The notes: generated by a model from the letters alone, not told the origin. A DNA stretch of 64,000 nucleotides from an uncultured beta proteobacterium (GCA_963719995.1 CAVRDW010000005.1:2169975-2233974); one strand, 5' to 3'; numbered from the stretch's first letter, positions 2,790-64,000 are shown. Translations and numbers: made by a program.

Positions 2790-2797
2790 GTCGGTCC

Positions 2798-7277: not shown

Positions 7278-9369
<2,092 letters not shown>

Positions 9370-9370
<1 letters not shown>

Positions 9371-13276: not shown

Positions 13277-14358
13277 CTAGGCGCCCGCCAGCGCCTCGAG
13301 GTACATCTCCCGGTCGATATTGCCTCCCGAGAGAATCACGGCGAAGCGCGAGCCCTTGCGCACCGGGTCCTTGAGCATGGCCGCATACGCCGCCGCACCC
13401 GCGCCCTCGGCGATGTTGTGCGTGCAGCGATAGAGGTCGCGCATCGCCGACTTCACCTCGTCGTCGCTCACTTGCACGATGCGGTCGGCGCCCGCGCGGA
13501 TCGCCTCCAGCGCCTCGGGCACCGGCACGCGCACCGCCACGCCGTCGGCGAAGGTGATCGCGCTTTTCGTCTCGACCGGCCTTCCCGCGGCGAAGGAAAG
13601 CGCGTAGCAGGCGGCGTTCTCGGACACCACGCCCACCACGCGCGTCCTGCAGGCCCAGCGCGTCGCGCCACGCGATCACCCCGCAGATTCCCGAGCCGCA
13701 GCCGACCGGCACGTAGACCTCGTCGATGTCCTTCACTGCGCCGAAAAGCTCCATCGCGTAGCTGCCCACGCCGGTCACGAGGTGGCGGTCGAAGGGCCCG
13801 ATGTAGTAGAGGCCCTGCGCCTTCGAGATCGCATGCGCGTGCTCGCGCGCCTCGTCGTAGTCGCGTCCGTGCTCGATCAGCTCCGCGCCCCAGGCGCGCA
13901 TCGCCGCGTTCTTCTCCTTGCTGTTGCCGTGCGGCACCACGATCACCGAACGGATGCCGTGGCGCCGTCCGGCGAAGGCGACCGACTGGCCGTGGTTGCC
14001 GCGCGTCGCGCTCGCCACGCCGGCGAGCTCTGGGGTTCTCGCGCCGCAGCTGGTCGATGAGCGTGAGCCCGCCGCGCACCTTGAAGGAGCCCGTGGCAGT
14101 GTGGTTCTCGTGCTTCACCCACACCTCGGTGCCGGACAGCTCGTTCAGCAGCGGCCAGCTCAGCTGCGGCGTCGGCGGCACGACGGCGTGCACCAGCCGC
14201 GCGCCTTCCTCGAGTTGCTGGCGGGTGAGCCCGAGGATCAGGCGAGGGGCCTGCGCGCGCCCGCGCGAAACGCGCAGGCCAGGCGCCACGCGGCGGGGAC
14301 CCCGCCGCGCGCGCGCATCGCGTCGGGCGGCCGGCTTCGGGCGCTTGCGGCTAGCCAC
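13277..14358 (-). CDS. Threonine/serine dehydratase-family PLP enzyme (at least two apparent frameshifts, near 13640 and 14020)
   Basis: Three colinear pieces in three frames make up the gene. The first is ...[18 protein letters not shown] (PLP lysine motif). The second is [50 protein letters not shown]...[13 protein letters not shown]. The third is [22 protein letters not shown]...[17 protein letters not shown]. The start is uncertain. Confidence 0.75.
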
Positions 14359-17584: not shown

Positions 17585-18356
<772 letters not shown>

Positions 18357-18357
<1 letters not shown>

Positions 18358-18452
18358 AAATCGGGGTCAGGGCCGAATTTTCTTGCGCGCAAAGAATTCG
18401 GCCCTGACCCCAATTTTCTCCGGCGAGATTAATTCGGCCCTGACCCCGATTT
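18357..18452. repeat. REP-like palindromic element cluster (1 forward copy, 2 inverted)
   Basis: AAAATCGGGGTCAGGGCCGAATTT at 18357. GAATTCGGCCCTGACCCCAATTT at 18394. AATTCGGCCCTGACCCCGATTT at 18431. Confidence 0.9.
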
Positions 18453-19647
18453 GCGCTCGATACCTGTAATCCTGATCGCGGCCCACATCTTCTCGATGCT
18501 GGGCTTCTCGACTTATCCGGCGCTGCTGCCCGAGCTGCAGGGCGAGTGGGCGCTGTCCAACTCGCAGGCGGGGATCGTCGGCAGCTTCTTTTTCGCCGGC
18601 TACATCGCCACGGTGTCGTCCTGGACGGCCCTTACCGACCGTATCGATGGCCGCTGGGTGTACGCCGCGGGAAGCGCGGTGGCGCTCATCGGCTGCGCGG
18701 GCTTCGGTCTGGGCGCGCAAGGGTTTCTCAGCGCCTGCGCGTACCAGGTTCTGATGGGCGCAGGGGTCGCCGGCACCTACATGCCAGGCCTGCGCCTGCT
18801 CTCCGACGTCACGCACGGCAAGTCCCAGAGCCGCTTCGTCGCGTTCTATACCTCGTTCTTCGGCATCGGCGCCGCGCTTTCCTTCGCGCTCGCCGGCTGG
18901 ATCGCCCCGATCGCCGGCTGGCGCATGGCCTTCGTTTACTGCTCCGTGGGCTCGGTGGTCTCGGGCCTGATGGTGTTCTTCAGCCTCGCGCCGAAGACGC
19001 CCGCGGGCTCGACGCACTCGATCCTTTTCCCGCTCGCCGCCTGGCGGACCGTCCTCACCAACCGGCCCGCGGCCGGCTACATCTTCGGCTACTGCGTGCA
19101 CTGCGTGGAGCTCTTCGGCTCGCGCGGCTGGATGGTGGCGTTCCTCGCTTTTGCCGCGGGCGTCGGCGCCGCGGGCGCCTCTCCGTGGAGCCCGACGGCG
19201 ATCGCGGCGCTCGTGAACCTGCTCGCGGTGCCCGCCTCCATCCTCGGCAACGAGATGGCGCTGCGCATCGGGCGCCGGCGCTGGATCCTCATCGTGATGG
19301 CGAGCTCCTCGCTCGCCGGCATCGCCCTCGCGTTCTCGGCCCCGCTGCACTGGGCGCTGGTGGTGGCGCTGCTCGTCTTCTACTCGATGCTGGTGATGGC
19401 GGAGTCGGCCACCCTCACCGCGGGCCTCGTGGCCGCGGCACCAGCCGAGCTGCGCGGGGCGGCGATGGGCCTGTATTCGCTCATCGGCTTTGGCGGCGGG
19501 ATGCTCGGGCCGGCGGTCTTCGGGGCCGCGCTCGACCTCGCCGGGGGGCAGGGAAGCATCGCCGCTTGGGCTTGCGGCTATGCGGCAATCGGCGCGGGGT
19601 GCCTGCTGGCACCCGTGGTGGTGAGGCTATTCCGGCCCGCTCGCTAG
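18451..19647 (+). CDS. MFS transporter
   Basis: A 398-aa ORF with about 12 hydrophobic segments. Its TTG start lies inside the last REP copy, so the start is uncertain. Confidence 0.75.
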   Translation: MRSIPVILIAAHIFSMLGFSTYPALLPELQGEWALSNSQAGIVGSFFFAGYIATVSSWTALTDRIDGRWVYAAGSAVALIGCAGFGLGAQGFLSACAYQVLMGAGVAGTYMPGLRLLSDVTHGKSQSRFVAFYTSFFGIGAALSFALAGWIAPIAGWRMAFVYCSVGSVVSGLMVFFSLAPKTPAGSTHSILFPLAAWRTVLTNRPAAGYIFGYCVHCVELFGSRGWMVAFLAFAAGVGAAGASPWSPTAIAALVNLLAVPASILGNEMALRIGRRRWILIVMASSSLAGIALAFSAPLHWALVVALLVFYSMLVMAESATLTAGLVAAAPAELRGAAMGLYSLIGFGGGMLGPAVFGAALDLAGGQGSIAAWACGYAAIGAGCLLAPVVVRLFRPAR

Positions 19648-19674: not shown

Positions 19675-21343
19675 ATGGAACGCATCTGGCTGAAGAGCTA
19701 TCCCGCGGGCATGCCCGCCGACGTCACCTGGGACGAGAACCAGTCCATCGGCGAGCTCTTCGAGAAGAGCTGCAAGGAGTTCGCCGAGCGCCCGGCATTC
19801 CACTGCATGGGCAAGACGCTGACCTTCGCGCAGATCGACAAGAAGAGCCGCGACTTCGCCGCCTGGGTGCAGTCCAAGGGCCTCGGCAAGGGCACGCGCG
19901 TCGCGATCATGATGCCCAACTGCCTGCAGTACCCGATCGTGCTCTTCGGCACGCTGCGCGCGGGCTACACGGTGGTGAACGTCAATCCCGCTCTACACCG
20001 CGCGCGAGCTCGAGCACCAGCTGAAGGACTCCGGCGCCGAGGTGATCGTGATCCTGGAGAACTTCGCGAACACGCTGGAGGAGGTGCTGCCGCGCACGCC
20101 CGTCAAGCACGTGGTGGTGGCTTCCCTGGGCGACCTGCTCGGCGTGAAGGGCGCGATCGTCAACTTCGTGGTGAGGAACGTGAAGAAGATGGTCCCGGCC
20201 TTCGAGCTGCCGAACGCGCAGCGCTTCAACGCCATGTTGAAGGAAGGCGCTGGCCTCGGCATGAAGCCGTTCCCCACGTCGCAGGAGGACATCGCCTTCC
20301 TGCAGTACACCGGCGGCACCACCGGCGTTTCCAAGGGCGCGATGCTCACGCATCGCAACATCCTCGCCAACATCGCGCAGAGCGAAGGCAACCTCCGCAA
20401 CGGGCTCGGCGGCGAGACGCCGGTGATCATCACCGCGCTGCCGCTGTATCACATCTTCTCGCTCACGGTGAACTGCCTGCTGATGGCGAAGATGGGCGGC
20501 TTGAACGTCCTCATCACCAACCCGCGCGACATCCCGGGGTTCATCAAGGAGCTCGCCAAGCACCGCTACAACATGATCACGGGCGTGAACACGCTGTTCA
20601 ATGCCTTCCTCAACAACCCGGACTTCCACAAGCTCGACTTCTCGCACGTCAAGATCAGCGTCGGCGGCGGCATGGCGGTGCAAAAGGCGGTGGCCGAGCG
20701 CTGGAAGCAGGTGACCGGCAAGGTGCTGCTCGAGGGCTACGGCCTCACGGAGACGAGCCCCGTCGCCACCATGAACCCGCCGAGCCTCCCCGAGTACAAC
20801 GGCTCGATCGGGTTTCCAGTGCCCTCGACCTACATCGCCATCCGCGACGACAACAACAAGGACCTGCCGGTCGGCGGCACCGGCGAGATCTGCATCAAGG
20901 GCCCGCAGGTGATGAAGGGCTACTGGCAGCGGCCCGAGGAGACCGTCAAGGTGCTCGACAAGGACGGGTTCCTCCACACCGGCGACATCGGCATCATGGA
21001 CGAACAGGGCTTCATCCGCATCGTCGATCGCAAGAAGGACATGATCCTGGTCTCGGGCTTCAATGTGTACCCGAACGAGATCGAGCAGGTGGTGGCGATG
21101 CACCCGGGCGTGCTGGAAGTGGCGGCGATCGGCGTGCCCGACGAGCACTCGGGCGAGGTGCCGAAGCTGTTCATCGTGAAGAAGGACCCGGCGCTCACCG
21201 AGAAGGACATCTTCGAGCACTGCAAGGAGCAGCTCACCGGCTACAAGCGGCCGAAGTACATCGAGTTCCGCGCCGACCTGCCCAAGACCAACGTCGGCAA
21301 GATCCTGCGCCGCGCGCTCAGGGACGAGAAGAAGGCGGCCTGA
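19675..21343 (+). CDS. fadD: Long-chain-fatty-acid--CoA ligase (apparent 1-nt insertion near 19985-19992)
   Basis: [17 protein letters not shown]...VNVNP is followed, in the frame of ORF 20042..21343, by [25 protein letters not shown]. That frame carries [22 protein letters not shown] (AMP-binding motif), GYGLTETSP and [12 protein letters not shown]. Confidence 0.9.
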
Positions 21344-21438
21344 AATCGGGGTCAGGGCCGAATTTTCGGCAAGAAGAGAAATTGGGGTCAGGGCCGAATT
21401 CTTTCCGCCGGAAAGAATTCGGCCCTGACCCCAATTTT
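21343..21438. repeat. REP-like palindromic element cluster (2 forward copies, 1 inverted)
   Basis: Copies occur at 21343, 21379 and (inverted) 21415. The first copy shares its first base with the fadD stop codon. Confidence 0.9.
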
Positions 21439-21442
21439 GTCC

Positions 21443-42171: not shown

Positions 42172-43368
42172 GTGCTCTACAACCTGTACGAAGCGCAGCA
42201 CATCTGGCTCACGCCCTTCCGCTTCGTTGCGGAGTGGCAGCGGGGGATGTTTGGCCACCCTTTCAGCCCCTGGGCGCTGGCGCCGATCGCCAAGCAGCTC
42301 GCCGCCTCGAACGACCTCTTCCTGCGCATCACGCAGCGCTATGAAAAGCCCGCGTGGCGCATCGACGAAGCCGAAATCGAAATCGCTCTCGATAAGCCCT
42401 TCTGCAAGCTCCTGCACTTCAAGCACCGCCACGCCGCCCCTCGCAACGCACCCAAGGTTCTGATCGTCGCCCCGCTTTCGGGCCACCACTCCACGCTGCT
42501 GCGCGACACGGTGCGCGCGCTCATGGCGGAGCACGACGTCTGGATCACGGACTGGGTGGATGCGCGCATGGTGCCGATGGCCGCGGGCGTGTTCCATCTG
42601 GCTGACTACGTGGATTACATACGTGAGTTCATTCGGCTGCTTTCACCTGACTTGCACGTGATCTCGGTGTGCCAGCCCACGGTGCCGGTGCTTTGCGCGA
42701 TCGCGCTGATGGCCGAGACGGGCGAGGTGACGCCGCCCAAGACCATGGTGATGATGGGCGGGCCGATCGACGCCCGCAAGAGCCCCACCGCGGTGAACAA
42801 CCTCGCGATGACGCGGCCGCATTCGTGGTTCGAGCGCAACGTCATCCAGCGCGTGCCCGACAAGTACCCGGGCTATTCGCGGCGCGTCTATCCGGGCTTC
42901 CTGCAGCACCTGGGCTTCGTGGCGATGAATCCCGATCGCCACCTCAACGCGCATTGGGAGTACTTCAACCACCTCGTGGAAGGCGACGACGACTCCGCCG
43001 ACCGCCACCGCGAGTTCTACGACGAATACAACGCGGTGATCGACCTGCCGGCCGAGTACTACCTCGACACGGTGAAGGCGGTGTTCCAGGACTTCGCGCT
43101 GCCCAAGGGCCGCATGTTCGTGAGGGATCGCCTCGTGCGCCCGCAGACGATCCGCGAGACGGCGCTGCTCACCATCGAAGGCGAGCTCGACGACATCTCG
43201 GGCAACGGCCAGACGGAAGCCGCGCACCTGCTGTGCCTCAACATCCCGCGCGAGCGGCGCCAGCACTACCTCGCGCCTCGGGTCGGCCACTACGGCATCT
43301 TCAGCGGCCGGCGCTGGCGCGACATGATCTACCCCCGGGTCCGGGAGTTCATCCGCATCCATGCGTGA
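42172..43368 (+). CDS. phaZ: Intracellular polyhydroxyalkanoate depolymerase
   Basis: A GTG start follows GGAGAGG. VLYNLYEAQHIWLTPFRF..., LIVAPLSGHHSTLLRDTV and GHYGIFSGRRWR match the PhaZ (PHB depolymerase) family pattern. Confidence 0.8.
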   Translation: MLYNLYEAQHIWLTPFRFVAEWQRGMFGHPFSPWALAPIAKQLAASNDLFLRITQRYEKPAWRIDEAEIEIALDKPFCKLLHFKHRHAAPRNAPKVLIVAPLSGHHSTLLRDTVRALMAEHDVWITDWVDARMVPMAAGVFHLADYVDYIREFIRLLSPDLHVISVCQPTVPVLCAIALMAETGEVTPPKTMVMMGGPIDARKSPTAVNNLAMTRPHSWFERNVIQRVPDKYPGYSRRVYPGFLQHLGFVAMNPDRHLNAHWEYFNHLVEGDDDSADRHREFYDEYNAVIDLPAEYYLDTVKAVFQDFALPKGRMFVRDRLVRPQTIRETALLTIEGELDDISGNGQTEAAHLLCLNIPRERRQHYLAPRVGHYGIFSGRRWRDMIYPRVREFIRIHA

Positions 43369-43427
43369 AATTGGGGTCAGGGCCGAATTCTTTCCGCCGG
43401 AAAAAATTCGGCCCTGACCCCAATTTT
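43368..43427. repeat. REP-like hairpin pair
   Basis: AAATTGGGGTCAGGGCCGAATTC ...(loop)... AAATTCGGCCCTGACCCCAATTT forms a near-perfect long stem immediately after the phaZ stop. Confidence 0.9.
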
Positions 43428-43444: not shown

Positions 43445-44098
43445 GTGCCTGAGGCCCGCGCTGCGCTTCTGGTTGGCGCCACAGGGCTGGTCGGTTCGTT
43501 CCTTCTTCAGCAGCTACTCGAATCCGACCGGTACGCACGCGTCGCGGTGTGGGCGCGGCGCGACATCGGCAAGACGCACCCGAAGCTGAGATCCGCGGTC
43601 GTCGACTTCGACCGGCTGCACGAGCGCCAAGTCGAGGCCGAGGACGTCTTCTGCTGCCTCGGCACGACCATCAAGGTGGCGGGCTCGCAGGCGGCGTTCC
43701 GGCGCGTGGACTACGATCTTCCCGTGGCGCTGGCGATCGCGGCGGCGGGCGGCGGTGCGCGGCGGCTGCTCGTTGTTTCGGCGCTCGGCGCGAATCCGGA
43801 CTCGAAGATTTTCTACAACCGAGTGAAGGGCGAGATGGAGATCGCGGTCCGCGCCGCCGGCGTGCCGGTGACGATCTTCTTCCGGCCGTCGCTTCTCTCC
43901 GGCCCGCGAACCGAGGTGAGAAGGGGCGAGCGCATCGGCGAGGCGATCGGCGCGCTGCTCGGGCCGCTGCTGGGTAAATACCGCCCGATCCACGCCGACC
44001 TCGTCGCCGCGGCGATGCTCAGGGCGGCGCTCGAGAACCACCCCTCCGAAATCATCGAATCCGGCGAGATCCGCAAATTGGGGTCAGGGCCGAATTAA
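43445..44098 (+). CDS. NAD(P)H-binding (NmrA/HTATIP2-like atypical SDR) protein
   Basis: LLVGATGLVGSFLLQQLL is the Rossmann GxxGxxG motif. The last residues KLGSGPN and the stop codon are encoded by a REP copy. Confidence 0.7.
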   Translation: MPEARAALLVGATGLVGSFLLQQLLESDRYARVAVWARRDIGKTHPKLRSAVVDFDRLHERQVEAEDVFCCLGTTIKVAGSQAAFRRVDYDLPVALAIAAAGGGARRLLVVSALGANPDSKIFYNRVKGEMEIAVRAAGVPVTIFFRPSLLSGPRTEVRRGERIGEAIGALLGPLLGKYRPIHADLVAAAMLRAALENHPSEIIESGEIRKLGSGPN

Positions 44099-44170
44099 TC
44101 GAGGCCAGGCGTAATTGGGGTCAGGGCCGAGTTCTTTTCGGCGAAATTTATTCGGCCCTGACCCCGATTT
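44075..44170. repeat. REP-like element cluster (2 forward copies, 1 inverted)
   Basis: Copies lie at 44075, 44111 and (inverted) 44149. The cluster bridges the convergent NAD-binding gene and cysB. Confidence 0.9.
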
Positions 44171-44171
44171 C

Positions 44172-45116
44172 CTACAGCTCGTACTTGGAGCCTTCCGCGC
44201 CCGTCACCGCCGGCTCAACGATCGAGCGCGGCAGGTGGGGGACGAACATCTCGATGAACTCGTAGGCGTATCGCCGCAGGTAGGCGCCGCGCTTGATGCC
44301 CAGGCGCGTGGTGCTCGACTCGAAGAGGTGCACGGCGTCCAGCGCTTTCAGGCCCGCGTCGCGCTTCGCGTTGAAGGCCATCGCCGCCATGATCCCCACT
44401 CCCAGGCCCAGCTCCACGTAGGTCTTGATCACGTCGGCATCCAGCGCGGTGAGCACGACCTTGGGCTGCAGCCCGCGCTGCTCGAAGGCCTTTTCCACGA
44501 GCGAGCGGTTGGCGAACGCGAAGTCGTAGGTGACGATGGGGTACTTCGCCACGGCTTCGAGCGTGAGCGGCTTCACGCGGGTGAGCGGGTGCCGCGCGGG
44601 CACCACCACGCAGCGGTTCCACTGGTAGCAGGGCAGCGACACGAGCTCCGGGTACTCGGCGATCTGCTCGGTGGCGATGGCGAACTCGGCCTCGCCGCGC
44701 AGCACCAACTCGCAGATCTGCGTCGGATTGCCCTGGTGGATGACGAGCTGCACGTCCGGGTACTTGCGCTTGAACGCCGCCACGGCCCTGGGCAGCGCGT
44801 AGCGCGCTTGCGTGTGCGTGGTGGCGATGGTGAGGGAGCCCAGCTTCTGGTTGGCGTACTCCTCGCCCGCGCGCTTCAGGTTCGCCGCCTCGGCGAGGAT
44901 GCGCTCGGCGATGGCAAGCACGGCGCGGCCGGGCTCGGTGAGGGAGGTGAGGCGCTTGCCGTGGCGCACGAAGATCTCCACGCCCAGCTCGTCTTCGAGC
45001 TCCTTCACCTGGCGCGAAACGCCGGGCTGCGAGGTGTGCAACGCCTCGGCCGCCGCCGAGACGCTCAGGTCCCTGCGCGCGATCTCGCAGAGGTAGCGCA
45101 GCTGCTGGATCTTCAT
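44172..45116 (-). CDS. cysB: LysR-family transcriptional regulator CysB
   Basis: MKIQQLRYLCEIARRDLSVSAAAEALHTSQPGVSRQVKELEDELGVEIF and the remainder resemble CysB/Cbl. The gene is divergent from the sulfite reductase gene. Confidence 0.85.
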   Translation of the reverse strand: MKIQQLRYLCEIARRDLSVSAAAEALHTSQPGVSRQVKELEDELGVEIFVRHGKRLTSLTEPGRAVLAIAERILAEAANLKRAGEEYANQKLGSLTIATTHTQARYALPRAVAAFKRKYPDVQLVIHQGNPTQICELVLRGEAEFAIATEQIAEYPELVSLPCYQWNRCVVVPARHPLTRVKPLTLEAVAKYPIVTYDFAFANRSLVEKAFEQRGLQPKVVLTALDADVIKTYVELGLGVGIMAAMAFNAKRDAGLKALDAVHLFESSTTRLGIKRGAYLRRYAYEFIEMFVPHLPRSIVEPAVTGAEGSKYEL

Positions 45117-45262: not shown

Positions 45263-47089
45263 ATGTACCTCTACGACCCCATCGACCAGCGCATCGTCGA
45301 CGAGCGCGTCGCCCAGTTCCTCGACCAGACCCGGCGCTATCTCGCCGGCAAGCTGTCGGAAGACGACTTTCGCCCATTGCGGCTGCAGAACGGCCTCTAT
45401 ATCCAGCGCTACGCGCCGATGCTGCGCGTGGCGATCCCCTACGGGATCCTGTCCTCCACGCAGCTGCGCAAGCTCGCGCACATCGCGCGCAAGTACGACC
45501 GCGGCTACGGCCACTTCTCCACGCGGCAGAACCTGCAGCTCAACTGGCCGAAGCTGGAGGAGGTGCCCGCGATTCTCGCCGAGCTGGCAAGCGTGCAGAT
45601 GCACGCCATCCAGACCTCGGGCAACTGCATCCGCAACATCACCACCGACCACTTTGCCGGCGTGGCGCGCGACGAGCTGGTGGACTCTTTCGTCTGGTGC
45701 GAGCTGCTGCGCCAGTGGTCCGCCATCCACCCCGAGTTCGCCTACCTGCCGCGCAAATTCAAGATCGCGGTGAACGGCGCCGAGGCCGACCGCGCCGCCA
45801 CCTTCCTGCACGACATCGGCCTGCAGGCGGTCAGGAAATCGGGGTCAGGAGTCGACCCCATTTCGCTTGCGAGCGAAATTGGGGTCTGACCCCAATTTCC
45901 CCGATTTCATCGGCTTCCGGGTCATCGTCGGCGGGGGCATGGGCCGCACGCCGATGATCGGGCAGGCGATCCGCGAGTTCCTGCCGTGGCGCCACCTGCT
46001 CACCTACCTCGAGGCCATCCTGCGTGTCTACAACCGCCACGGCCGGCGCGACAACAAGTACAAGGCGCGCATCAAGATCCTCGTGCGCGAGCGCGGCATC
46101 GAGGCTTTCCGCGAAGAGGTGGAGGCCGAGTGGGAGCACCTGCGCGATGGCCCCTCCACGCTGACCGTCGAAGAGGTGCGCCGCGTAGAGAGCCGCTTCA
46201 CGCGGCCGGCGTATGAGAAGCCGGGGTCAGACCCCAATTCGGCTCGCAAGCGAAATTGGGGTCTGACCCCAATTTGGCCGGCCCCTTCGCCGCCTGGCGC
46301 AAGCGCAACGTCCATCCGCACAAGCAGCCCGGCTATGCCGCGGTGACGCTGTCGCTGAAGAAGACGGGCGTGCCGCCGGGCGACGTCACCGACGCTCAGA
46401 TGGACGCCATCGCCGATCTCGCCGATCGCTATAGCTTTGGCGAACTGCGCGTTACGCACGAGCAGAACCTCGTGCTCGCGGACGTGCGCGAGGACCGGCT
46501 GGAGGCGCTCTGGCGCGAGGCCAAAGCGCTCGGCCTCGCCACGCCGAACATCGGCCTGCTGACCAACATCATTGCCTGCCCGGGCGGGGACTTCTGCGCG
46601 CTCGCCAACGCCAAGTCGATCCCGGTCGCCGAGGCCATCCAGCGTCTGTTCGACGACCTCGATTACCTGCACGACATCGGCGAGCTCGACCTCAACATCT
46701 CCGGCTGCATCAATTCCTGCGGCCACCACCACGTCGGCCACATCGGCGTGCTGGGCGTGGACAAGCAGGGCGCCGAGTTCTACCAGGTGACGATCGGCGG
46801 GAACCAGGGAAATCGGGGTCAGGGCCGCATTTCTGCCGCCGGAAAGAATTCGGCCCTGACCCCAATTTCGGCCCCCGCGTCAGTAGGCAAGGTGATCGGG
46901 CCGGCGTTCGCCCAGCACGAGGTGCCCTGGGTGGTGGAGCGCCTGATCGAGACCTACCTGCAGCTCCGCGAAAGCGAGGAGGAGCGCTTCGTGGATTGCG
47001 TGCACCGCATCGGCATCGAACCCTTCAAGGAGAACGTCTATGGCAGCGCTGATTCGCCGCGCCAGGATCGAGAGGCTGCGCTCGCCTGA
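45263..47089 (+). CDS. cysI: Sulfite reductase hemoprotein (NirA/CysI-type sirohaem Fe-S enzyme). It is interrupted by three REP insertions, two of which are associated with frame changes.
   Basis: One piece is MYLYDPIDQRIVDERVAQF...QNGLYIQRYAPMLRVAIPYG...SGNCIRNITTD. A second is FRVIVGGGMGRTP. A third is NIIACPGGDFCALANAKS...ISGCINSCGHHHVGHIGVLG. Frame 2 runs up to about 45889, frame 0 covers 45867-46346, and frame 2 resumes from 46256. Confidence 0.85.
45836..45898. repeat. Variant REP-like palindromes inside the sulfite reductase gene (site 1)
   Basis: AAATCGGGGTCAGGAGTCGACCCCATTT followed by GCGAAATTGGGGTCTGACCCCAATTT. An in-frame TGA at 45887-45889 lies within it. Confidence 0.85.
46221..46275. 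repeat. Variant REP-like palindromes inside the sulfite reductase gene (site 2)
   Basis: CCGGGGTCAGACCCCAATT followed by GCGAAATTGGGGTCTGACCCCAATTT. This is the same 26-mer found at site 1. Confidence 0.85.
46810..46869. repeat. REP-like hairpin pair inside the sulfite reductase gene (site 3, in frame)
   Basis: AAATCGGGGTCAGGGCCGCATTT ... GAATTCGGCCCTGACCCCAATTTC spans 60 nt. It is translated in frame as [20 protein letters not shown], between VTIGGNQG and APASVGKVIGPAF. Confidence 0.9.
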
Positions 47090-47552
47090 TGCGCACCTAG
47101 CTGACACGGCCGCAGCTGGGGCGGCCGAGGTGGCTGCGGGAGAGGTGCTGCGCCTGGAGCCCGCCGACGATCCGGCGGCGTTCGCCCATCGCCTCGGCGC
47201 GGTATCGCGGGTGGAAGTGAACTTCCCGAGCTTCACGGACGGGCGCGGCTACTCGATCGCGCGCCTGCTCCGCGAGCGCCACGGCTATGTCGGAGAGTTG
47301 CGCGCGGTGGGAGATGTCCAGCGCGACCACCTCTTCAACCTCGCGCGCTGCGGGTTCGATACCTTCCTGCTGCGCAAGGACGAGGACGCCGACGAGGCGC
47401 TGGCTGCCTTCGACGACTTCAGCGAGACCTACCAGGCCTCGGTGGAGGAGCCGCAACCGCTCTTCCGCCGGCGCCGGAAATCGGGGTCAGGGCCGAATTA
47501 TTCTCGCGCGGAAAAACTCGGCCCTGACCCCGATTTCCTGAACGCGAGGTAG
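47040..47552 (+). CDS. DUF934-family protein (sulfite-reductase-associated)
   Basis: FPSFTDGRGYSIARLLRERHGYVGELRAVGDVQRDHLFNLARCGFDTF is the DUF934 core. The gene overlaps the end of the sulfite reductase gene. Its C-terminal roughly 25 residues ([24 protein letters not shown]) are REP-encoded. Confidence 0.8.
   Translation: MAALIRRARIERLRSPDAHLADTAAAGAAEVAAGEVLRLEPADDPAAFAHRLGAVSRVEVNFPSFTDGRGYSIARLLRERHGYVGELRAVGDVQRDHLFNLARCGFDTFLLRKDEDADEALAAFDDFSETYQASVEEPQPLFRRRRKSGSGPNYSRAEKLGPDPDFLNAR
47478..47537. repeat. REP-like hairpin pair shared by the 3-prime ends of two convergent genes
   Basis: The forward copy lies at 47478 and the inverted copy ends at 47537. The DUF934 gene (plus strand) reads through it to 47552, and dsbB (minus strand) ends inside it at 47498. 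Confidence 0.9.
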
Positions 47553-49648: not shown

Positions 49649-49708
49649 AAATTGGGGTCAGGGCCGAATTTTTTCCGGCGGAAAAAATTCGGCCCTGACC
49701 CCAATTTT
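49649..49708. repeat. REP-like hairpin pair
   Basis: AAATTGGGGTCAGGGCCGAATTTTTT ... AAAAAATTCGGCCCTGACCCCAATTT. Confidence 0.9.
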
Positions 49709-50413: not shown

Positions 50414-50472
50414 AAATGGGGTCAGGGCCGAATTAATCTCGGCGAAAAGAATTCGGCCCTGACCCCGATTTC
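50414..50472. repeat. REP-like hairpin pair
   Basis: AAATGGGGTCAGGGCCGAATTA ... GAATTCGGCCCTGACCCCGATTTC. Confidence 0.9.
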
Positions 50473-55559: not shown

Positions 55560-56672
55560 TCAATGGCGATTGAACGGTGCCATTGATCGCTTCAAGAACC
55601 CCGAATTGATTACCGCCAATGCCGCTTCCTCATGTCCCTTGCTGTTCCAATGGCCATCAAACGGCCATTCAAACCGTGCTTGATCCATGATATGCCGATC
55701 AATGAAGCGCGGCTGCATATCGATGACGTGATAGCCCATCTCCTTCGAGACCTGCAGCAGGAATGAACGCATCACCGCAAAGTAACTCCCCTGAGTAGCC
55801 TCCAGCGCCGCCTTGTCGTACAAGTTCGGCCGCATTCCATCCACAACGATGGCAATCCTTTCGGGCGGAAGTCCGGAGTAGCGCGGCAAGACGCTGAGAA
55901 AATGTTGCACGGCTTCCTTCGACTGCTGCGCGCGCAGAGTGTCGGCTTGGGCGGCGACGTTGCCAACGTAGTTCGCATTTCCAAACAGGCGCTGGCAAAG
56001 GCTTCCAAGTGAGAGGTTGTAGGCCAGGTATCTTGCCAATGCGCTCTGCTGCAGTGCGCGACCCCAAAGAGTCGGAGTAAAGGGCACCAAGTGCAGTTGG
56101 AATCCTGTAGCTGCGGACCGCCGCAGGTAATGGAACCCGCGATTGGACTTCTACTCCAACAGCGATTCATCAAAATCATTGCCAACCACAACTATCAGCA
56201 TCGCATGAGGGCGAAACGTGTCTTTTGCGTACTGCGCGTACGCTAGGTATTGGCTCAATGCGGAGCCGGATGAGCCGAAGCTATACACCCGGCTACGATT
56301 TCCCAAAAACGTAGCCAACCTGCCGTGCAGTGTGTCCTCGTACGGGACGATGAGCGCCTCGACGTAGCTGTCTCCAATTACAGCCAAGAGTGGCGTTGTG
56401 GAATGGTGGTCATAGTCTTGGTTGTTCACAAAGCCGTAGTTGTTTACGCGCACCCTATTTGCGACTTCAAAGTTCCACGGGGTGGAATAGAGGACTTCCC
56501 TGTTGGGTTTGAAATGCAGGCAGGGCTGCGCACTACTAACTGGCTGAACCTCAAGCGACTCGCGGACTGGAAGCAGCCGCAGGGCAGTTTCAAGTACTAG
56601 CAGCGCGCCCAGTACGCTCAGCGCGACGGATAGCGTCCGGAAGGCTATTGAGCGTGCCCGGCCTTGGATCAT
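55560..56672 (-). pseudogene. SGNH/GDSL-hydrolase-like protein (AlgX/AlgJ-like, possible polysaccharide O-acetylation), interrupted by an in-frame TAG at 56153-56151
   Basis: ORFs 56151..56672 (TM anchor, LLAVIGDSYVEAL, VVVGNDFDES) and 55560..56090 (...FEWPFDGHWNSKGHEEAA) are in the same frame. They are separated only by one amber codon and 20 sense codons. Confidence 0.55.
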
Positions 56673-56757
56673 TTGTAGATGGGGCAGGCCTGAGACCTAG
56701 TCAGGCGCAAACGCACACCCATACCCTTCCGTGTCAGACAAATTCTGGCCCCTTGCG

Positions 56758-57900
56758 CTAGTCGTGCAAGAAGATTGAGGTCTTCCCTGTTACTTCACGA
56801 ATCGCGACCAAGTAACGCTCGTAGACTATATGGTCGTCAAACTCCTTCTCCATTTTCTGTCTTCCACGCATGCCCATTGCAGATCTTTCGGACTCGGAAA
56901 GCCGCATCATCTGCTTCATCTTTTCGGCGAGGTCGCCAGCATCCCGCACTTTCACAAGATAGCCGGTGACGCCGTCTTCTACGACTTGCCTGCAGCCTGG
57001 CACATCGGTGGTGATAATGGGTATCGCCATGCTACTGGCCTCAAGCAGAGACTTGGGCGCTCCTTCCCGATACGACGGCAATACCACACAGTCCGCCTGC
57101 GCCAGTTGTCCGCGTACATCAACCGGCGGAGACACGTAGGTCACTACCCCCCTGCGCTCCCAATCCTGGACCTTCGAGAGTGGAATTGCAGTGAGATTGT
57201 CGGTCCCTGTGAACCCCATAAGAACGAACTCGGATTGAGGACGCTCGGGCTTCACCCGTGCAGCAGCCTCCACAAACTCCCCGACCCCCTTGTCCCACAG
57301 CAATCTGCCCAGCAGCAAGAACCGGAACTTCTCCCGACGCTGATGCGACTGGGCTGGGGGTGCAAACCAACGAATGTCCACGCCTGATCCGGGTAGCAGC
57401 CGCGCCTTAGAGGGATTGACCAAGTGCCCCTGCACGAATAGCTGCATGTCTTCCGGGTTTTGAAAGAACGCCGTAGAAGCCCGTCGTAGTGCACTCCGGT
57501 ATAGGAAACGGACAACTGCGGTGACCCAGTTCGGCCTGATGAACGCGGTGCCGAGGCCTGAAACATTGGCGACTACCGGGATTCCCAGAGAATTGGCAGC
57601 GAAAGCCCCGAAAACATTGGGCTTTACGGTGAAGGTGAGCGCACAGCAGGGGCGCTCCTGTTTCAAGAGTCGACGTAGTCCGAACGCCAGCAATAGATCT
57701 TTGACCGGGTTCGTGCCCTTGTTGTCCATTGGCTGGGGCAGGAACCTTACCCCGCCTGCTGTTAGCCGCTCCGAATACTCGTCGGTCGGGGCGATGGCAA
57801 TAACCGAATATCCCTCTCGCTGGAGCTCCTCAATCAATCGACGGCGGAAGTTATAGATGTACCAGGACGTATTCGCGATAAGGGCGATCTTGTCTTTCAC
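56758..57900 (-). CDS. Glycosyltransferase (GT-B fold, family 4-like)
   Basis: An intact 380-aa ORF. ADCVVLPSYREGAPKSLLEASSMAIPIITTDVPGCRQVVEDGVTGYLV is the typical EX7E-type C-terminal domain. Confidence 0.8.
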   Translation of the reverse strand: MKDKIALIANTSWYIYNFRRRLIEELQREGYSVIAIAPTDEYSERLTAGGVRFLPQPMDNKGTNPVKDLLLAFGLRRLLKQERPCCALTFTVKPNVFGAFAANSLGIPVVANVSGLGTAFIRPNWVTAVVRFLYRSALRRASTAFFQNPEDMQLFVQGHLVNPSKARLLPGSGVDIRWFAPPAQSHQRREKFRFLLLGRLLWDKGVGEFVEAAARVKPERPQSEFVLMGFTGTDNLTAIPLSKVQDWERRGVVTYVSPPVDVRGQLAQADCVVLPSYREGAPKSLLEASSMAIPIITTDVPGCRQVVEDGVTGYLVKVRDAGDLAEKMKQMMRLSESERSAMGMRGRQKMEKEFDDHIVYERYLVAIREVTGKTSIFLHD

Positions 57901-59307
57901 TCGACGGCGGACAGGAGCGAAGGGATCTTGCTGCGACCATGCGCGCTAATTGACAATAGCCAATCCTTTATGCGGTCTGCCCTCACCCTAGGCCTTGCCT
58001 GCATGGGCGTGGTTCCAGTTGGTCGTCCAGAAAGCACCGCAAGTGAGCCTTCGCGTATGTGGTAGCCGGTGCCTGGCTCGATGTCCTGCTTGCGAATCCC
58101 TGCTTCGTGCCACTTCACCTGTCGTCCAGCGATGTTGAAGCCATCGTCCCCAATATCCCTCAGGGGCGGAGTGGCGACTGTGATGCTCAAGCTGGGGCCA
58201 ATTTCCTGGACTCGAATGAATTGTCTGTGGTCACCGCAGAACGCTTCTTCGAGAATTGAGTGCGTCTTCGCGCGCGATGCCTCATCGTGGATCTCCACGG
58301 CAACCTGAGGCGCCATGGCCAACAGGGGGGTGTACTGAGCGCGAGACAGCCCCGCTTGGCCCATCAGCATGGCCAGATCCTCAATTACCAATTCCACGCC
58401 TTCGTGATTGCTGCGATGCACTGCAGCTTGCCCCATGCTGGAGGCAAACACCACTACAAGTTCTGGATTCGAGTTGGCCCAATCCAAGACATCCCGGAGC
58501 ATGTCGTTCAATACTCTTACCGCAAACTGCATTAGCCATTTGCGCGACGCGCCGGTATTGCCAGGTTGTCCTCGGAAGTCTTCCGGAAACACGTCCCTCC
58601 AATAGCGATGCATCACGCCAGCAACATGGTTCGTGAAGAACGTACTCAAGTGTGGTGGCCGGTGCGCATTGAAATGCTTTCGAAACACATCCCAAAAGAG
58701 AATGGTCTGGAAGATCGGGCGCCTCGCCGACAATGATTTGTCGACTCGCTCGCGCAGAGAGCTGGGCGAGAATTCTCGCGCCGGTGCGCAACCTGACCCC
58801 GGATTTCAATGATGTGGATGCAACGCCCACCACGTCGCTGGCGCGAGGCATTGAGTCGCTCACGACTCTTGCGTTCTTGCCTACCTGCGCAAGATTGAAT
58901 GCCTGTAGTGGATTGAGGTATGGGGGGTAGCATCGTTCATCGTGGGCGAAGGTGTCCGGCACATAGAAGCCGCCCTCGCCCGGTGCCACTGGTGGCCAGC
59001 TTTGCATTGAGCCGCAAATACCGATAGAGCCGCCACGTTCACGGATTTCCTGCCAAATCGGCTTTCCCTTGAACGTCGACGGGTCCTGTCCCAGATTCTT
59101 GATCCCGTGTTGTTCGTTGTTCATCCCGCGATGAAACGTCGGCCATGTCACCCAGGGAGAAAGCTCACCGGTATCCACGGCCAGTGTGGTGTAGTGATCT
59201 GATCGCCGGAAGAAGCAATTCAGGTTTCCAAACTCGGGACGGTCCACGTACCGATCGAGCAAACGCCAGGGAATCTCGTTGATCTCCAGGAGCAGGATGG
59301 GCGTCAT
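57897..59307 (-). CDS. Alkaline-phosphatase-superfamily-like (nucleotide pyrophosphatase/phosphodiesterase-like) protein (apparent frameshift near 58700-58740)
   Basis: MTPILLLEINEIPWRLLDRYV...LSPWVTWPTFHRGM comes from ORF 58381..59307. It joins RRPIFQTILFWDVFRKHF...THSILEEAF... from ORF 57897..58733. The functional call is weak. Confidence 0.45.
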
Positions 59308-59321
59308 TGGCGTGGGTGTGA

Positions 59322-61264
59322 TCAGGAATTCTGGTGTTCAAGCCAGGCCTGAAACATCAGCACATCCCAAAGATGGGATTGCCAGTTGCGTTTTCCGGAC
59401 AGGTGCTCATCCCACTTGCGGCGAATTGGTGCTGGATACAAGTAGCCGTCCCGTCTTAGCCGCGCCTCGCTCAACAGTCCTTCCGCCCATTCACGCAGTG
59501 GGCCACGCAGCCACAAGCCGATTGGCACTCCGAATCCCATCTTTGGTCTGTCAATCAGGCTGTGCGGTACGTACTTGTAAAGTACTTGTCGCAGAAGCCA
59601 CTTTCCCACGCCGTCGCGGATCTTGTATCGCATGGGCAGCCGCCAGGCAAACTCGAATACGCGGTGGTCGAGAAATGGCACCCGTGTTCTAGGCTTACCG
59701 CCATGGCGGCTCGGTCCACTTTCACGAGGATATCGTCAGGAAGATATGTGATCGCATCTAGGGCCATCATTGATTCTGTAAGTCCAGAAAGCGGTTGCGA
59801 TTGACCGGAGAGCACCGTCGTCGGCTCCACGGCCCCAATTACGAGCTGAGCGGGCTCCCAATGGCTCACGAGGCCCCGATACAGCGCCATGCCGCTGCCC
59901 GCGAGAAGCACAGGCGCACCTTTGTGCAGCGTGTAACCCGGACTCGCCAAACGCAATCTTCGCGGAATGAGCGGGCAAATCAGGGAATGGAGCCGATCCC
60001 ACAACTCAGGCGAGCCCGCGAGAATGACTTGGGCAGCCAAGTTGCGTACTGTTTTCGGAATGCGGCTTAGTACGCGCCAACTGCGTGCTGCCAAAAAATA
60101 TCTGTTGTAGCCGCAAAAGAGTTCGTCACCTCCGTCACCAGAAAGGGATACGGTCACATGCTGCCGAGCAAGCTGTGCCACAAGGTAGGTGGGAATCTGC
60201 GAGGAGTCGGAAAACGGCTCGTCGTAGATCTGAGGTAGCTTCGGAATCGTTCCCTGCGCGTCGGACGGCGTGACGTAAAGCTCGGTGTGGTCCGTGCCGA
60301 GATGCCGCGCGACGGCATTTGCATGCTGCGCTTCGTCGTACCCGGCCTCCAGAAAGCCAATGGAGAAAGTCTTGACAGGCCGATTTGCTTTAGCCTGCAT
60401 GAGCGCCACTATTGTGGATGAGTCCACCCCGCCAGAAAGAAAGGCTCCCAGCGGCACGTCTGAGATCATCTGCGCAGCGACTGCACGTGAGAGCACATCT
60501 TCCAGGGCCACTGCCGCGCTTGCATCGGAATCGAGGCACATTGGCTCTGCCATGCCGATCCTGGCCGCTTCGAGCGCCGACCAGTACGGCCGCATTGTCG
60601 GCATTTCTCTCTTGTAGATGTATGGCGCAGATATTTCTAGGTACGTACCCGGCCGCACCTTGTTGAAATGCTGGTAAATGCAGTGGGGCGCGGGGACGTA
60701 GTTGTGACGCAAGAGCAAGGCCAGTGCCTCTCGGTTGATCTCTCCAGCGAATCCGGGAAGCCCAGCAAGAGCCTTCAACTCTGACGCAAACGCGAATACA
60801 CGTCCGACGTAGCCGCAATAGAGAGGCTTCTCGCCCAGTCGGTCTCGCGCCAGAACCAGCTTGCGCGTCTGTCGGTTCCAGAGTGCAAACGCAAACATTC
60901 CGACCACCGACTTGAGCGTCTTTTCCGTGCCCCAGGCGCCGAAGCAGGCAAGCAGGGTTTCGGTATCGGAATGCCCGCGCCACGCAGGCGCATGGCCGCC
61001 GAGCATTTCGCGCAATTCAAGATGGTTGTAGATCTCGCCATTGAAGACGATCACGAATTGGCCGCATGCCGAATGCATCGGTTGATGGCCGGCAGCCGAA
61101 AGATCGAGCACCGAGAGCCTGGCATGCCCCAACGCGACTCCACTTTCCGGCTCTGCCCACAATCCCGAATCGTCGGGTCCACGGTGGCGAAGGCGGCGAA
61201 TTGCCATGTCAAGCGCGTCGTCGCTATGTGGAGCCCGGCCCCAAGTTCCGATGATGCCGCACAT
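59322..61264 (-). CDS. Asparagine synthase (glutamine-hydrolysing)-family amidotransferase, WbpS-like (apparent frameshift near 59690)
   Basis: MCGIIGTW is the N-terminal Cys nucleophile. [32 protein letters not shown] (PP-loop) and [10 protein letters not shown] are present. The C-terminus ([16 protein letters not shown]...) lies in the frame of ORF 59322..59681. Confidence 0.85.
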
Positions 61265-61273
61265 GACCGATGC

Positions 61274-62065
61274 CTATGGCCTATTCGCCAAGATCACCAT
61301 TCCGGCCAGTCGCCGGCAGAAAGCTCTTGCCGATCCTGCCAGCAGCGCCGATCTCGCCAATCCCGCCAATCGATGGAGGCTCAGTCTGCCGAGCCTGAAG
61401 CCAATGTAGTCCTCTTCAATATGTCGCAGCACGAAGCCGGCTTGCCGGAACGAGGCTTGCACTTCGCAATAAGTGCGATACGTGGTAAAGCTATCGAGCC
61501 AGCCAATGAAGTCGCGAGCCCACTCGGCCTGTGCCTTGCCTGCCTTGAAGTAACCGAGCCCTAGCGCACGCATTAGGCGCATGTAGGGAAGGCGCAATGT
61601 GCTCTCTCTGGAAAACCAGTGGATCATCGGTACACCGCAATGGCCCTCCCTTATGACCTCTCGGGACGGAAATAGCGTCAGCAACCGACCTCCAGGCTTG
61701 AGCACGCGAGCTATTTCTGTGAGCACTAGGTCTAGATTCTCGACATGTTCGAACACTTGATTCGAGATCACGAAGTCGAAATAGCGATCCACAAAAGGGA
61801 TGACACCGCCTTCACCTAGCTCCAAGACCGCGCTTCCGAGTAAACCCCTTTCCGCAGCGGCCTGCCTGGCGTTGCTTCCAGCGTAGAAGACTTCAACTCC
61901 GCATATATCCATCGCTTCGCGCCTGCCCATTGCCACGACCTCGCCACCGCCACACCCATAGTCGAGGATGCGGCCCCGAGGGCATATAGCACGGCACTTG
62001 CCGAGCACGTATTCGTAGTTCGGATGCACTAACTCATCGCTTCCGCACTTCTGACTTTGATCCAC
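61274..62065 (-). CDS. Class I SAM-dependent methyltransferase
   Basis: ILDYGCGGGEVV is SAM motif I. DFVISNQVFEHVENL and LKPGGRLL are also present. Confidence 0.8.
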   Translation of the reverse strand: MDQSQKCGSDELVHPNYEYVLGKCRAICPRGRILDYGCGGGEVVAMGRREAMDICGVEVFYAGSNARQAAAERGLLGSAVLELGEGGVIPFVDRYFDFVISNQVFEHVENLDLVLTEIARVLKPGGRLLTLFPSREVIREGHCGVPMIHWFSRESTLRLPYMRLMRALGLGYFKAGKAQAEWARDFIGWLDSFTTYRTYCEVQASFRQAGFVLRHIEEDYIGFRLGRLSLHRLAGLARSALLAGSARAFCRRLAGMVILANRP

Positions 62066-63171
62066 AAACCTTGATACGCGCGCACCATCGTCTCAAGGCT
62101 GAACTTCTCCTCTATGCGTGCACGGCATCTCTGACCCAACGCAGCACGACCCTTCGCAGCCACGACCGACAGCGCCTCCGCGATCGCGCGTGCCAACGCT
62201 TCTGGGTTGCGGCGCGGAACCACCCACCCGGTTTCACCAACAATCAGACGCGCATCGCCGACATCAGTGACCACACACGGTGTGCCGCAGGCCATTGCTT
62301 CGGCCACGGTGTTCGGGAACGCTTCGCCAACGCTTGATAGGACGTGCAAGTCGAGGGCGTTCATTACCGCGGGAACATCATCCCGAGCACCCGCGAGGAC
62401 CATCGTGTCATCCAGTCCGAGCTGGCGCACCCTCGCAGCCAGGACGGGATTGGCCCAGGCCATGTTTGCGCCAACCAGGACGCATCGAAACACTGCACCA
62501 GCCGTTCTTAGCTTGGCAAGTGCGTGCAGGAGGTTATTGTGATCCTTCTGCGGATCCCAGCGAGCTACCATCCCCAAGAGAGGTCCTTGTGGAGCGATTC
62601 CCCACTCTCTTCGCAGCCGCGCGCGGGCTTCCGAATTCGGCGAGAAGCAAGAAAGGTCATAGCCATTCGCGATAACGACGAAAGTGCCGTTCTCATAGCC
62701 CATGGTTTTGTGAAACCTAGTCGCCTCTTCGGAACAGCAAACGATGGCAGCTGGGATCCGCGTGGACAAGAGGGCGCAGATTCTGGCGGCGGCGCGAGCA
62801 CTGAAGCTGACCTTGTCTGTGTCCAAGTTGGAGTTGCGAATTCCCCACACCACAGTCCGGACACCGGCGCTGCGGGCTGCCAATCCCCCCAGGAGATCTC
62901 CGTGATACATCCACGTCTGGACAACGTCCGGATGCGCCCGGACAATTATCCGCCGCAAAGTCAGGATGCCATTGATACCAGTCCAACCCCGAAGGTTTCC
63001 AACTGAATGTACTTCCACACCGAGCTCGCGCAGGCGTGGGCCATAGTGGCCACTGTTCTTCAGCGAAACGACTGTGTGTGTGAAGTCCGGCGGCGACGCA
63101 GAAATGAGCCGATATAGCACCGCCTCTGCGCCGCCTTGTGCCAAGTCCGTGATGACATGCAAGACCTTCAC
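62029..63171 (-). CDS. Glycosyltransferase (GT-B fold, family 4-like)
   Basis: An intact 380-aa ORF with a GTG start. MKVLHVITDLAQGGAEAVLYRL and LHVLSSVGEAFPNTVAEAMACGTPCVVTDVGD are typical. Confidence 0.8.
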   Translation of the reverse strand: MKVLHVITDLAQGGAEAVLYRLISASPPDFTHTVVSLKNSGHYGPRLRELGVEVHSVGNLRGWTGINGILTLRRIIVRAHPDVVQTWMYHGDLLGGLAARSAGVRTVVWGIRNSNLDTDKVSFSARAAARICALLSTRIPAAIVCCSEEATRFHKTMGYENGTFVVIANGYDLSCFSPNSEARARLRREWGIAPQGPLLGMVARWDPQKDHNNLLHALAKLRTAGAVFRCVLVGANMAWANPVLAARVRQLGLDDTMVLAGARDDVPAVMNALDLHVLSSVGEAFPNTVAEAMACGTPCVVTDVGDARLIVGETGWVVPRRNPEALARAIAEALSVVAAKGRAALGQRCRARIEEKFSLETMVRAYQGLWIKVRSAEAMS

Positions 63172-64000
63172 AAAGATCTTGGCAATGCCACGGATTCGTC
63201 AAATAACTTGTCCCACATGGCAAGTACTCTCTTCATCGAATATCGCTCTCTGACTTCCACGGCGCGCAGCGCCATCCGCTCCCGCGCCGGGTCTATCCGC
63301 CATCAACCGGTCCAGAGCTCGAGTCAATGCTGCGATATCTCCGACCGGCGAAACGAGCAGGCCATCTAGCCCGTGACGAATAATGTCCCTTGGTCCTGTG
63401 TCGCAGTCGTAGCTGACCGCTGCGCATCCATGCGCCATTGCCTCTGCGAGTGTATTGGGAAAGCCCTCGAAACGAGAGGTCATCACGTAGAGCGAGGCAC
63501 GCCTGTACCAGTCGTCAATATTGCCAACGAGTCCGGGAAGAGCCACCCGGCCCGCTAGGCCCATCGTTTCAACTTGCTGCTTCAAGCGAATGGTCTCTTC
63601 CCCCTCCCCGACTATTGCCAGATTCCAGGAAGGATATCGGGGAGCGAGGTCGGCGAACGATGCAATGAGCCGATCGAACTGCTTGCCTTCATCGAGCCGA
63701 CCAACTGCAAGCAACAGCTTGCAGTCTGGCGCGACGATCAGCTCGGGTTGCAGCACGGGCTCCCCCCGTTCCAGGGGAACCTGCACAGGATTGGAAATTA
63801 CAACGCCTCTCGCCCCGGGAACGGTCGATTCCAGCCAACGCAAGCCTTCCGTGGTTAGCATTACGACGCCGGATGCGCACGGATACATAAGCCTTCGTAA
63901 CGTATCTAACAACCTGCCAATCTGTCGTGCCGGAGGATAGGTGCGTTCAGACACGAACAATTTGCAGCCCAGCCCCATAGTGGCGAGAAGGACTGCAACG
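63168..64000 (-). CDS. Glycosyltransferase (GT-B fold, family 4-like), C-terminal part; the gene runs off the right edge (apparent frameshift near 63300)
   Basis: LYVMTSRFEGFPNTLAEAMAHGCAAVSYDCDTGPRDIIRHGLDGLLV is present. The likely true C-terminus, ARERMALRAVEVRERYSMKRVLAMWDKLFDESVALPRSL, lies in another frame. It ends at TGA 63170-63168, overlapping the next GTG (GTGA). Confidence 0.75.

Follow-up and report, generated by a model that had tools for sequence, protein, structure and literature searches.

In-frame palindromic repeats and probable assembly frameshifts in a sulfite reductase gene of an uncultured Burkholderiales lineage

Is the sulfite reductase gene described here broken into three parts by palindromic insertions, or is it an intact gene that carries such insertions in frame? 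The question is raised by a NirA/CysI-type assimilatory sulfite reductase hemoprotein gene (45263-47089, plus strand; two NIR_SIR_ferr domains and a NIR_SIR domain), referred to here as cysI, in the window, which is the whole 64-kb stretch of DNA that was analysed. An initial annotation, made from the sequence of the window, had described REP-type insertions at three places in this gene and a change of reading frame at two of them, and had offered two accounts of the latter: a pair of compensating indel errors in the two hairpins, or a gene split into three ORFs at the REP sites.

Gene layout and the three palindromic elements

The product of cysI is 77-90% identical to hundreds of Burkholderiales sulfite reductases with lengths of 557-614 amino acids, and its nearest solved structure is Mycobacterium tuberculosis NirA (PDB 1ZJ8; E=4e-42). 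Upstream of cysI is a divergent gene for a CysB-like LysR regulator (44172-45116, minus strand), and downstream are a DUF934 gene and then a convergent dsbB. Three-frame translation of the deposited sequence bore out the reported frame order of 2 to 0 to 2, with the middle segment in a different frame from its flanks. The N-terminal 190 residues are encoded in frame 2, in which ORF1 (45263-45889) runs to a TGA stop codon (45887-45889) within the first element; the conserved middle block (approximately 45900-46220, FIGFRVIVGGGMGRTP...RPAYEK) is in frame 0; and the C-terminal part, from approximately 46278 to the stop codon at 47087-47089, is back in frame 2. An RTX protein at 26.9-33.9 kb has an apparent 2 to 0 to 2 frame course as well.

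Palindromes are present in the gene at all three of the places that had been named. The element at site 1 (45834-45900; 67 nt) belongs to a subtype designated type B, consists of nested hairpins, and is associated with a +1 break of frame; the adjoining CCCGATTTC (45901-45909), directly on its 3' side, resembles what is left of the end of an older element. The element at site 2 (46221-46277), also of type B, is associated with a -1 (+2) break. The element at site 3 (46811-46870) is of type A and is exactly 60 nt long, so that it adds 20 codons in frame, just as initially described; the distance between its flanking anchors is 123 nt, versus 63 nt in 17 relatives in which the site is empty. Elements 1 and 2 have in common the previously noted 26-mer GCGAAATTGGGGTCTGACCCCAATTT (45873-45898 and 46250-46275), and they are mutually complementary across 38 nt. 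They do differ from element 3, but their description as a shorter variant holds only in part, as they form a distinct subtype with double GGGGTCWGACCCC hairpins and element 1, at 67 nt, is longer than element 3. Each of the cysI elements has a predicted folding energy of -39 to -41 kcal/mol, with z-scores of -6 to -8 versus shuffled sequences.

The first insert site precedes the GFRV motif in a stretch of variable sequence, the second is the linker that joins the two halves of the protein, and the third is another variable stretch, which follows the GGNQG motif. The sites match alignment gaps or the inter-domain break in comparison with NirA (1ZJ8), and variable columns among orthologues. An AlphaFold2 model of an in-frame relative of 604 amino acids had a mean pLDDT of 59, too poor for loop mapping, with values below 50 in the insert segments.

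The palindrome family and its counterparts in relatives

The cysI elements are members of a dispersed family: the window contains 33 matches to the half-site GGGGTCWGNNC, versus 1.4 expected by chance, and these cluster into at least 12 loci in the 64 kb. The hairpins of the family fold at -39 to -48 kcal/mol (z-scores of -6 to -10), and unit sizes span the range from a minimal palindrome of 25 nt, GAAATCGGGGTCWGACCCCGATTTC, which is found as an independent unit in relatives, to hairpins of 60-67 nt. Type A, the commonest, consists of GAAATCGGGGTCAGGGCCGAATT, a loop and AATTCGGCCCTGACCCCGATTTC, for a total of approximately 60-65 nt; type B, found at cysI sites 1 and 2, has two GGGGTCWGACCCC mini-hairpins flanking a central GCGAAAT/ATTTCGC stem. 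The elements have terminal inverted repeats (GAAATCGGGGTCAG ... CTGACCCCGATTTC).

Six of the 12 loci are intergenic, two overlap the 3' ends of genes, and four are within coding sequence, namely the three in cysI and a composite of approximately 2.5 units (41215-41345) that is in frame in a penicillin amidase gene (minus strand), just upstream of the SNNW motif. Intergenic copies typically begin directly at a stop codon (TGA-AAT...), as do the composites at 18355-18455 (TGA-AAATCGGGG) and 21340-21440 (TGA-AATCGGGG) and the copy at 43365-43425 (TGA-AATTGGGG). Another intergenic composite (9274-9370) spans an operon gap between minus-strand genes, from the stop codon of one to the start codon of the next. 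The composite at 44076-44170 encodes the C-terminal residues ...RKLGSGPN and the stop codon of an NAD-binding protein, whose gene is convergent with the LysR/CysB-like gene. A type A copy between the convergent DUF934 and DsbB genes (47476-47540) encodes the last residues and stop context of both; at this site the contig of a close relative (L001, described below) has TAG directly before its element. The remaining copies are between a MORN-repeat gene and a PEMT/ICMT-like gene (49650-49706; intergenic) and between a YjbH/PAP2 gene and the MORN-repeat gene (50414-50470), all of these genes being on the minus strand.

No Rfam family matched anywhere in the window at the gathering threshold. A role in intrinsic termination is not indicated: one or two copies were flagged as terminators, the window-wide count of nine predicted sites versus 6.2 expected is no enrichment, and the hairpins have AATTT tails rather than T-runs. 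A literature search found nothing specific on such an element family in Burkholderiales. The family was not found in the 80 GTDB representative genomes listed, with CysI proteins at most 80% identical, and was seen only in close relatives.

Alignment with orthologous proteins, which had been proposed as a means of defining the insert boundaries, gave a clear result. An element-free protein query retrieved hundreds of Burkholderiales orthologues of 557-563 amino acids and a minority of 580-614 amino acids, in which the extra length falls at exactly the three cysI sites and the inserted peptides are recognizable as translations of palindromes, for example SGSGPNSFSQREFGPDPNF and NWGQTPISPKLGSDPNF. 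The nearest relative (P0001; 604 amino acids) comes from two JGI soil-metagenome contigs (L001 and L002), which were assembled from short (Illumina) reads and are syntenic with the window at 95% DNA identity. On both contigs cysI is a single intact ORF with all three sites occupied in frame. The site 1 element of the window is 25 nt longer than the allele of L001 and L002, whereas its site 2 element is 13 nt shorter than that of L001, which is of type A; these differences of length from an in-frame relative exist because the subtype found at both sites in the window lineage is not that of the relative. They sum to +12, an exact compensation that two random errors would achieve with a one-in-two chance, and a real compensated pair of changes would look alike.

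A pattern scan of JGI metagenomes across site 1 found nine of nine loci in frame, with six palindrome variants (the nine loci correspond to eight distinct contigs; L085 is the L001 contig and L086 is the L002 contig), and at site 2 and site 3 all relatives recovered have lengths divisible by three. A second long-read contig (L083; ENA ERZ25039502, contig_76791) is 99% identical to the window and has elements at the same three sites; the site 3 element is identical in the window, L001, L002 and L083. Logan contigs over the region are fragmentary and come from relatives with yet other element variants, and give no verdict on the deposited bases. Since the three sites are occupied by elements in independent assemblies too, made on other platforms and from other samples, the insertions are real: judged by sequence comparison, the elements in cysI are genuine, and their identification as REP-type insertions within a sulfite reductase gene was correct.

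Contig L087, the only one in which the distribution of a site 1 variant could be examined, has its own variant of that element outside cysI as well, and the intergenic regions of another contig (L090) contain additional copies of that contig's element types. Such lineage-own variants outside cysI suggest either repeated colonization of the same sites or homogenization among copies. We consider it an evenly balanced possibility that the three fixed loop positions are long-lived 'landing pads', at which the palindrome family of each lineage repeatedly replaces or homogenizes the resident copy.

The three palindromes are genuine members of a lineage-specific family of small nested palindromic repeats, which is probably dispersed throughout the genome of an uncultured member of the Burkholderiales. 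Most copies are intergenic and frequently abut a stop or start codon. Some copies persist in genes, probably where the host protein tolerates extra residues, and these are kept free of stop codons, at lengths that are multiples of three, and are probably translated as peptides rich in G, S, P, D and N. Sulfite reductase appears to offer three permissive sites, in which related lineages carry their own versions of the palindrome.

Origin of the frame breaks

Of the two accounts offered initially, compensating indel errors in the two hairpins are favoured, since other genes of the window are frameshifted too and site 2 is in frame in L083. The window is part of a 2.24-Mb metagenome contig and was probably assembled from long reads, a platform deduced solely from the size and naming of its contig. 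A frame plot of GC content at the third codon position displayed many same-strand frame switches in the window, and at least seven further frameshifts were identified in three other conserved genes by the presence of consecutive Pfam profile coordinates in different frames. A MoxR gene has one shift, with its AAA_3 and AAA_lid_2 domains in different frames; a PLP enzyme gene of the PALP family has two, with profile positions 5-54, 56-177 and 185-295 in three frames; and the penicillin amidase gene has four, with profile positions 1-21, 20-80, 75-511, 480-577 and 530-675 in five frame segments. As these frameshifts affect unrelated genes across the window, breaks of frame are a general property of the assembly, and not special to the REP sites. 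Indels are the dominant error type of nanopore sequencing, and inflate apparent pseudogene counts in metagenome-assembled genomes (PMC8103633).

The second long-read contig permits a direct comparison. In the penicillin amidase gene, the window has a single extra base at each of two shifts (41698 and 41861); L083 lacks both bases, and its call for this gene is an intact ORF of 821 amino acids. L083 has its own indels elsewhere, at positions where the window agrees with the Illumina contigs, and because each sequence has indels that the other contradicts, both long-read assemblies are considered noisy. Outside the elements, the window and the Illumina contigs differ by no indel over 2.4 kb except for one 75-nt intergenic difference. 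At site 2, L083 has an extra 9-nt direct-repeat unit (CGGAGAAGG) and one T (GGGGTCAGATCCCC) in comparison with the window, and reads through in frame as ...EKPEKAGSDPQFGSQAKLGSDPNLAGPF.... A discrepancy of one base per element is, at the level of the sequence, sufficient for loss of frame, and at site 2 this can be seen directly. At site 1, both the window and L083 are out of frame and differ by a 3-nt and a 2-nt indel within 40 nt, which would fit a single one-base error in each assembly together with a real 3-nt polymorphism. The type B allele of site 1 has no in-frame form in any short-read contig recovered. We infer the exact erroneous bases at site 1 and the mode by which the elements spread; likewise, the assembly errors are inferred and not observed, because no raw reads of the source were found (a search of sequencing runs returned no run containing the window, the best share of sampled words being 0.34). 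The motif CTCGC/GCGAG was considered as a mark of systematic error and rejected, because it occurs approximately once per 140 nt in this GC-rich DNA.

A real and very recent pseudogenization, in which slippage at a palindrome or replacement by a type B element put element 1, element 2 or both out of frame, is an unlikely alternative. In its favour, hairpins are naturally prone to indels, turnover of the elements at sites 1 and 2 is clear among close relatives (to the extent of +25 and -13 nt and a change of subtype relative to L001), and two independent long-read contigs are both out of frame at site 1. However, the window and L083 disagree within element 1 by two indels, so that at least one of them must be wrong there; L083 is in frame at site 2; and the other frameshifts in conserved genes of the same assembly, at least seven in number, include two that L083 contradicts. 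Every relative recovered, all short-read contigs included, has kept the frame at all three sites. When each segment of cysI is compared with L001 in its own frame, there are 53 synonymous versus five non-synonymous codon differences (seven versus zero in the middle segment), and no segment has an excess of non-synonymous differences; purifying selection has therefore acted on the cysI product as a single protein, at least until very recently. If pseudogenization were nevertheless true, the strain would have lost assimilatory sulfite reduction, possibly as a result of life on reduced sulfur in sediment or of having a second enzyme.

Far less probable is that the gene functions as deposited, either as three ORFs whose products co-assemble into a split enzyme, or through ribosomal +1/-1 frameshifting or bypassing at the hairpins. 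The two shifts compensate each other, both hairpins are strong, element 1 has AGGAG upstream of in-frame TTG codons, and its UGA-C stop follows a G-rich run, which are points in favour of such an arrangement. Inspection of the sequence, however, revealed no credible signals for prfB-like +1 frameshifting, a -1 slippery heptamer, or gene 60-like take-off and landing. Site 2 has no slippery heptamer, the GUC-to-UCU re-pairing that would be needed at site 1 is implausible, and bypassing would have only GTC to GTC available as matching take-off and landing codons, a jump that would remove the invariant G-F-R of GFRV. As for a split enzyme, AGGAG is separated from the TTG codons by 15 or 27 nt and ORF3 is without a Shine-Dalgarno sequence, which leaves no usable ribosome-binding site for ORF2 or ORF3. 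The proteins of ORF1 (208 amino acids) and ORF2 (155 amino acids) were found by exact-sequence look-up on only one contig, of 2,240,224 nt, among approximately 15 billion proteins, whereas relatives make the same protein by plain in-frame reading. The proposed split into three ORFs at the REP sites, lacking credible ribosome-binding sites and start codons and unique to one contig, describes the deposited sequence but is biologically unsupported. Although the 26-mer and the 38-nt complementarity shared by elements 1 and 2 could confuse an assembler, the idea that the palindromes are foreign to the gene and were spliced in through repeat collapse is effectively refuted by the independent assemblies that carry them.

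We conclude that cysI is probably an intact gene with three tolerated in-frame palindromes, and that its deposited frame breaks are probably indel errors of assembly in two hairpins. The frame order of 2 to 0 to 2 would then reflect a miscounted base in each of two highly stable hairpins rich in G4 and C4 runs; these miscounts would be errors in the consensus sequence of a metagenome assembly built from long reads, in which frameshifts are found throughout. An intact gene, or at most one that is 'frameshifted, probably artefact', is the appropriate annotation. Strong intragenic palindromes in long-read-only metagenome assemblies may give rise to 'split genes' of spurious biological appeal, of which this locus is a clear warning. 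The in-frame palindromes themselves are of greater interest: they represent an RPE-like colonization of housekeeping enzymes outside the obligate intracellular bacteria, in what appears to be an abundant uncultured Burkholderiales lineage of soil or sediment, and the three shared loop positions offer a natural system for the study of how elements spread or are homogenized and of the amount of foreign peptide that an enzyme loop can accommodate.

Comparison with known repeat systems

Several known classes of repeats share features with the elements described here. Rickettsia palindromic elements (RPEs), described by Ogata et al. (2000) and summarized in PMC10969869, are a dispersed family of palindromic repeats of approximately 100-150 bp that have inserted in frame into many unrelated genes, with further copies in intergenic locations. 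The elements of the window are likewise dispersed, present without stop codons in housekeeping genes where they are translated as tolerated peptides, and found between genes in other copies. They have the general traits of an RPE-like class, being a dispersed family with stable hairpins inserted in frame and free of stop codons in comparison with empty orthologues, although the in-frame trait rests on the exact 60-nt insertion at site 3 and on the relatives at sites 1 and 2, where the window itself is out of frame. Unlike RPEs, they are only 25-67 nt long, GC-rich, and nested or composite; different lineage-specific palindrome variants occupy the same three sites; and the host is a free-living soil or sediment member of the Burkholderiales with 66% GC, in contrast to the reduced genome of the obligately intracellular Rickettsia. 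Length, GC content and host set the elements apart from the RPE families proper, and they are not filed here as members of those families.

REP sequences and BIMEs of Proteobacteria are palindromes tagged with GTAG or CGTC and mobilized by RAYT transposases (PMC3733652). The present elements resemble them as short, GC-rich, imperfect palindromes in high copy number that form composite clusters and are situated after stop codons or between convergent genes. Their termini read (G)GAAATYGGGGTCAG, with no GTAG or CGTC tag, and no RAYT gene was seen within the 64-kb window. Whereas REP/BIME sequences are extragenic, four of the 12 loci here are within coding sequence and translated, and two more overlap the 3' ends of genes.

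Bacterial MITEs, such as ERIC/RU, Correia and cyanobacterial elements, are known to have intragenic in-frame copies (PMC2759123, PMC10969869). Like MITEs, the elements of the window are non-autonomous, have terminal inverted repeats, and may either fuse in frame with a gene or disrupt it, depending on the strain. They have no known parent insertion sequence, and their units are far smaller than those of typical MITEs. At site 3, where the insertion is exactly 60 nt, a target-site duplication is not evident, and the insertion at site 2 replaced the original loop.

The MIRU-type intercistronic repeats of mycobacteria fill operon gaps and overlap the flanking stop and start codons, as does the copy at 9274-9370, but they are tandem direct repeats rather than hairpins. 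Translational bypass elements, exemplified by gene 60 of phage T4 and the 'byp' insertions in the mitochondria of Magnusiomyces, are also short hairpin-forming insertions that interrupt the reading frames of essential genes. Here, in contrast, no matched take-off and landing signature is present and relatives read straight through; if, improbably, the breaks were real and the enzyme were still made, cysI would be a bacterial chromosomal counterpart of the mitochondrial 'byp' elements. The palindromes of this Burkholderiales lineage extend a known phenomenon and do not constitute a new kind of system: they are a further case of small palindromic repeats that are able to persist in frame inside genes.

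Frameshifts outside cysI

Three conserved genes other than cysI, the sulfite reductase hemoprotein gene, are frameshifted without any involvement of palindromes: those for a MoxR AAA ATPase (1849-2918, minus strand; one frameshift), a PALP-family PLP enzyme (13280-14376, minus strand; two) and a penicillin amidase (39554-42176, minus strand; four). Successive Pfam profile coordinates lie in differing frames in each of them, and these shifts point to an assembly that is prone to indels in general.

A giant RTX (HemolysinCabind)-repeat protein is encoded at 26930-33880 on the plus strand, within a stretch of lower GC (55-59%). Its gene has an apparent frame switch from 2 to 0 to 2 near 31.2-31.6 kb, and this 'compensated' frame pattern appears to be common to it and cysI. 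A lower-GC block (56-59%) at 56000-64000, which encodes glycosyltransferases and an asparagine synthase, is probably a polysaccharide biosynthesis island; palindromic elements are absent from this block within the window.

Variation at and beyond cysI

At the first and third palindrome sites of cysI, the palindrome sequence differs by lineage at identical positions in the contigs of four relatives (L084, L087, L090 and L092), examples being GGGGACAGGCACC, AGGGACAGTCCC and GGGGTCAGATCAAC. The site-1 variant of L087 is found again elsewhere on the same contig, which suggests either concerted evolution or repeated re-colonisation.

The interval between the cysI stop codon (47089) and the DUF934 gene is 75 nt longer in Illumina relatives (L001, a syntenic soil-metagenome contig) than in the window. 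The additional 75 nt consist of GCTGACGC/GCTGATGC-like short repeats, which are missing from both the window and the long-read contig L083.

Elements at gene ends and within penicillin amidase

One palindromic element of the window (47476-47540) lies where the DUF934 and dsbB genes converge, and it codes for the C-terminal residues of both products. Due to a CGG-to-TAG difference in L001 (about 5330-5400), its DUF934 stop codon falls right before the element, and so these repeats alter protein C-termini among close strains.

Intergenic copies (18355, 21341, 43366 and 9273-9372) begin exactly at stop codons (TGA, then AAT...), and the copy at 9273-9372, within an operon, reaches exactly from one gene's stop codon to the following gene's start codon. 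This exact abutment suggests that the element end provides translational signals, or that selection keeps it adjoining them.

A composite of approximately 2.5 palindromic units (41215-41345, minus strand) is inserted in frame within the penicillin amidase gene and translated, with an SNNW motif directly downstream. Because SNNW is the start of the beta chain in related acylases, the insert may, by analogy, be located in the excised spacer peptide.
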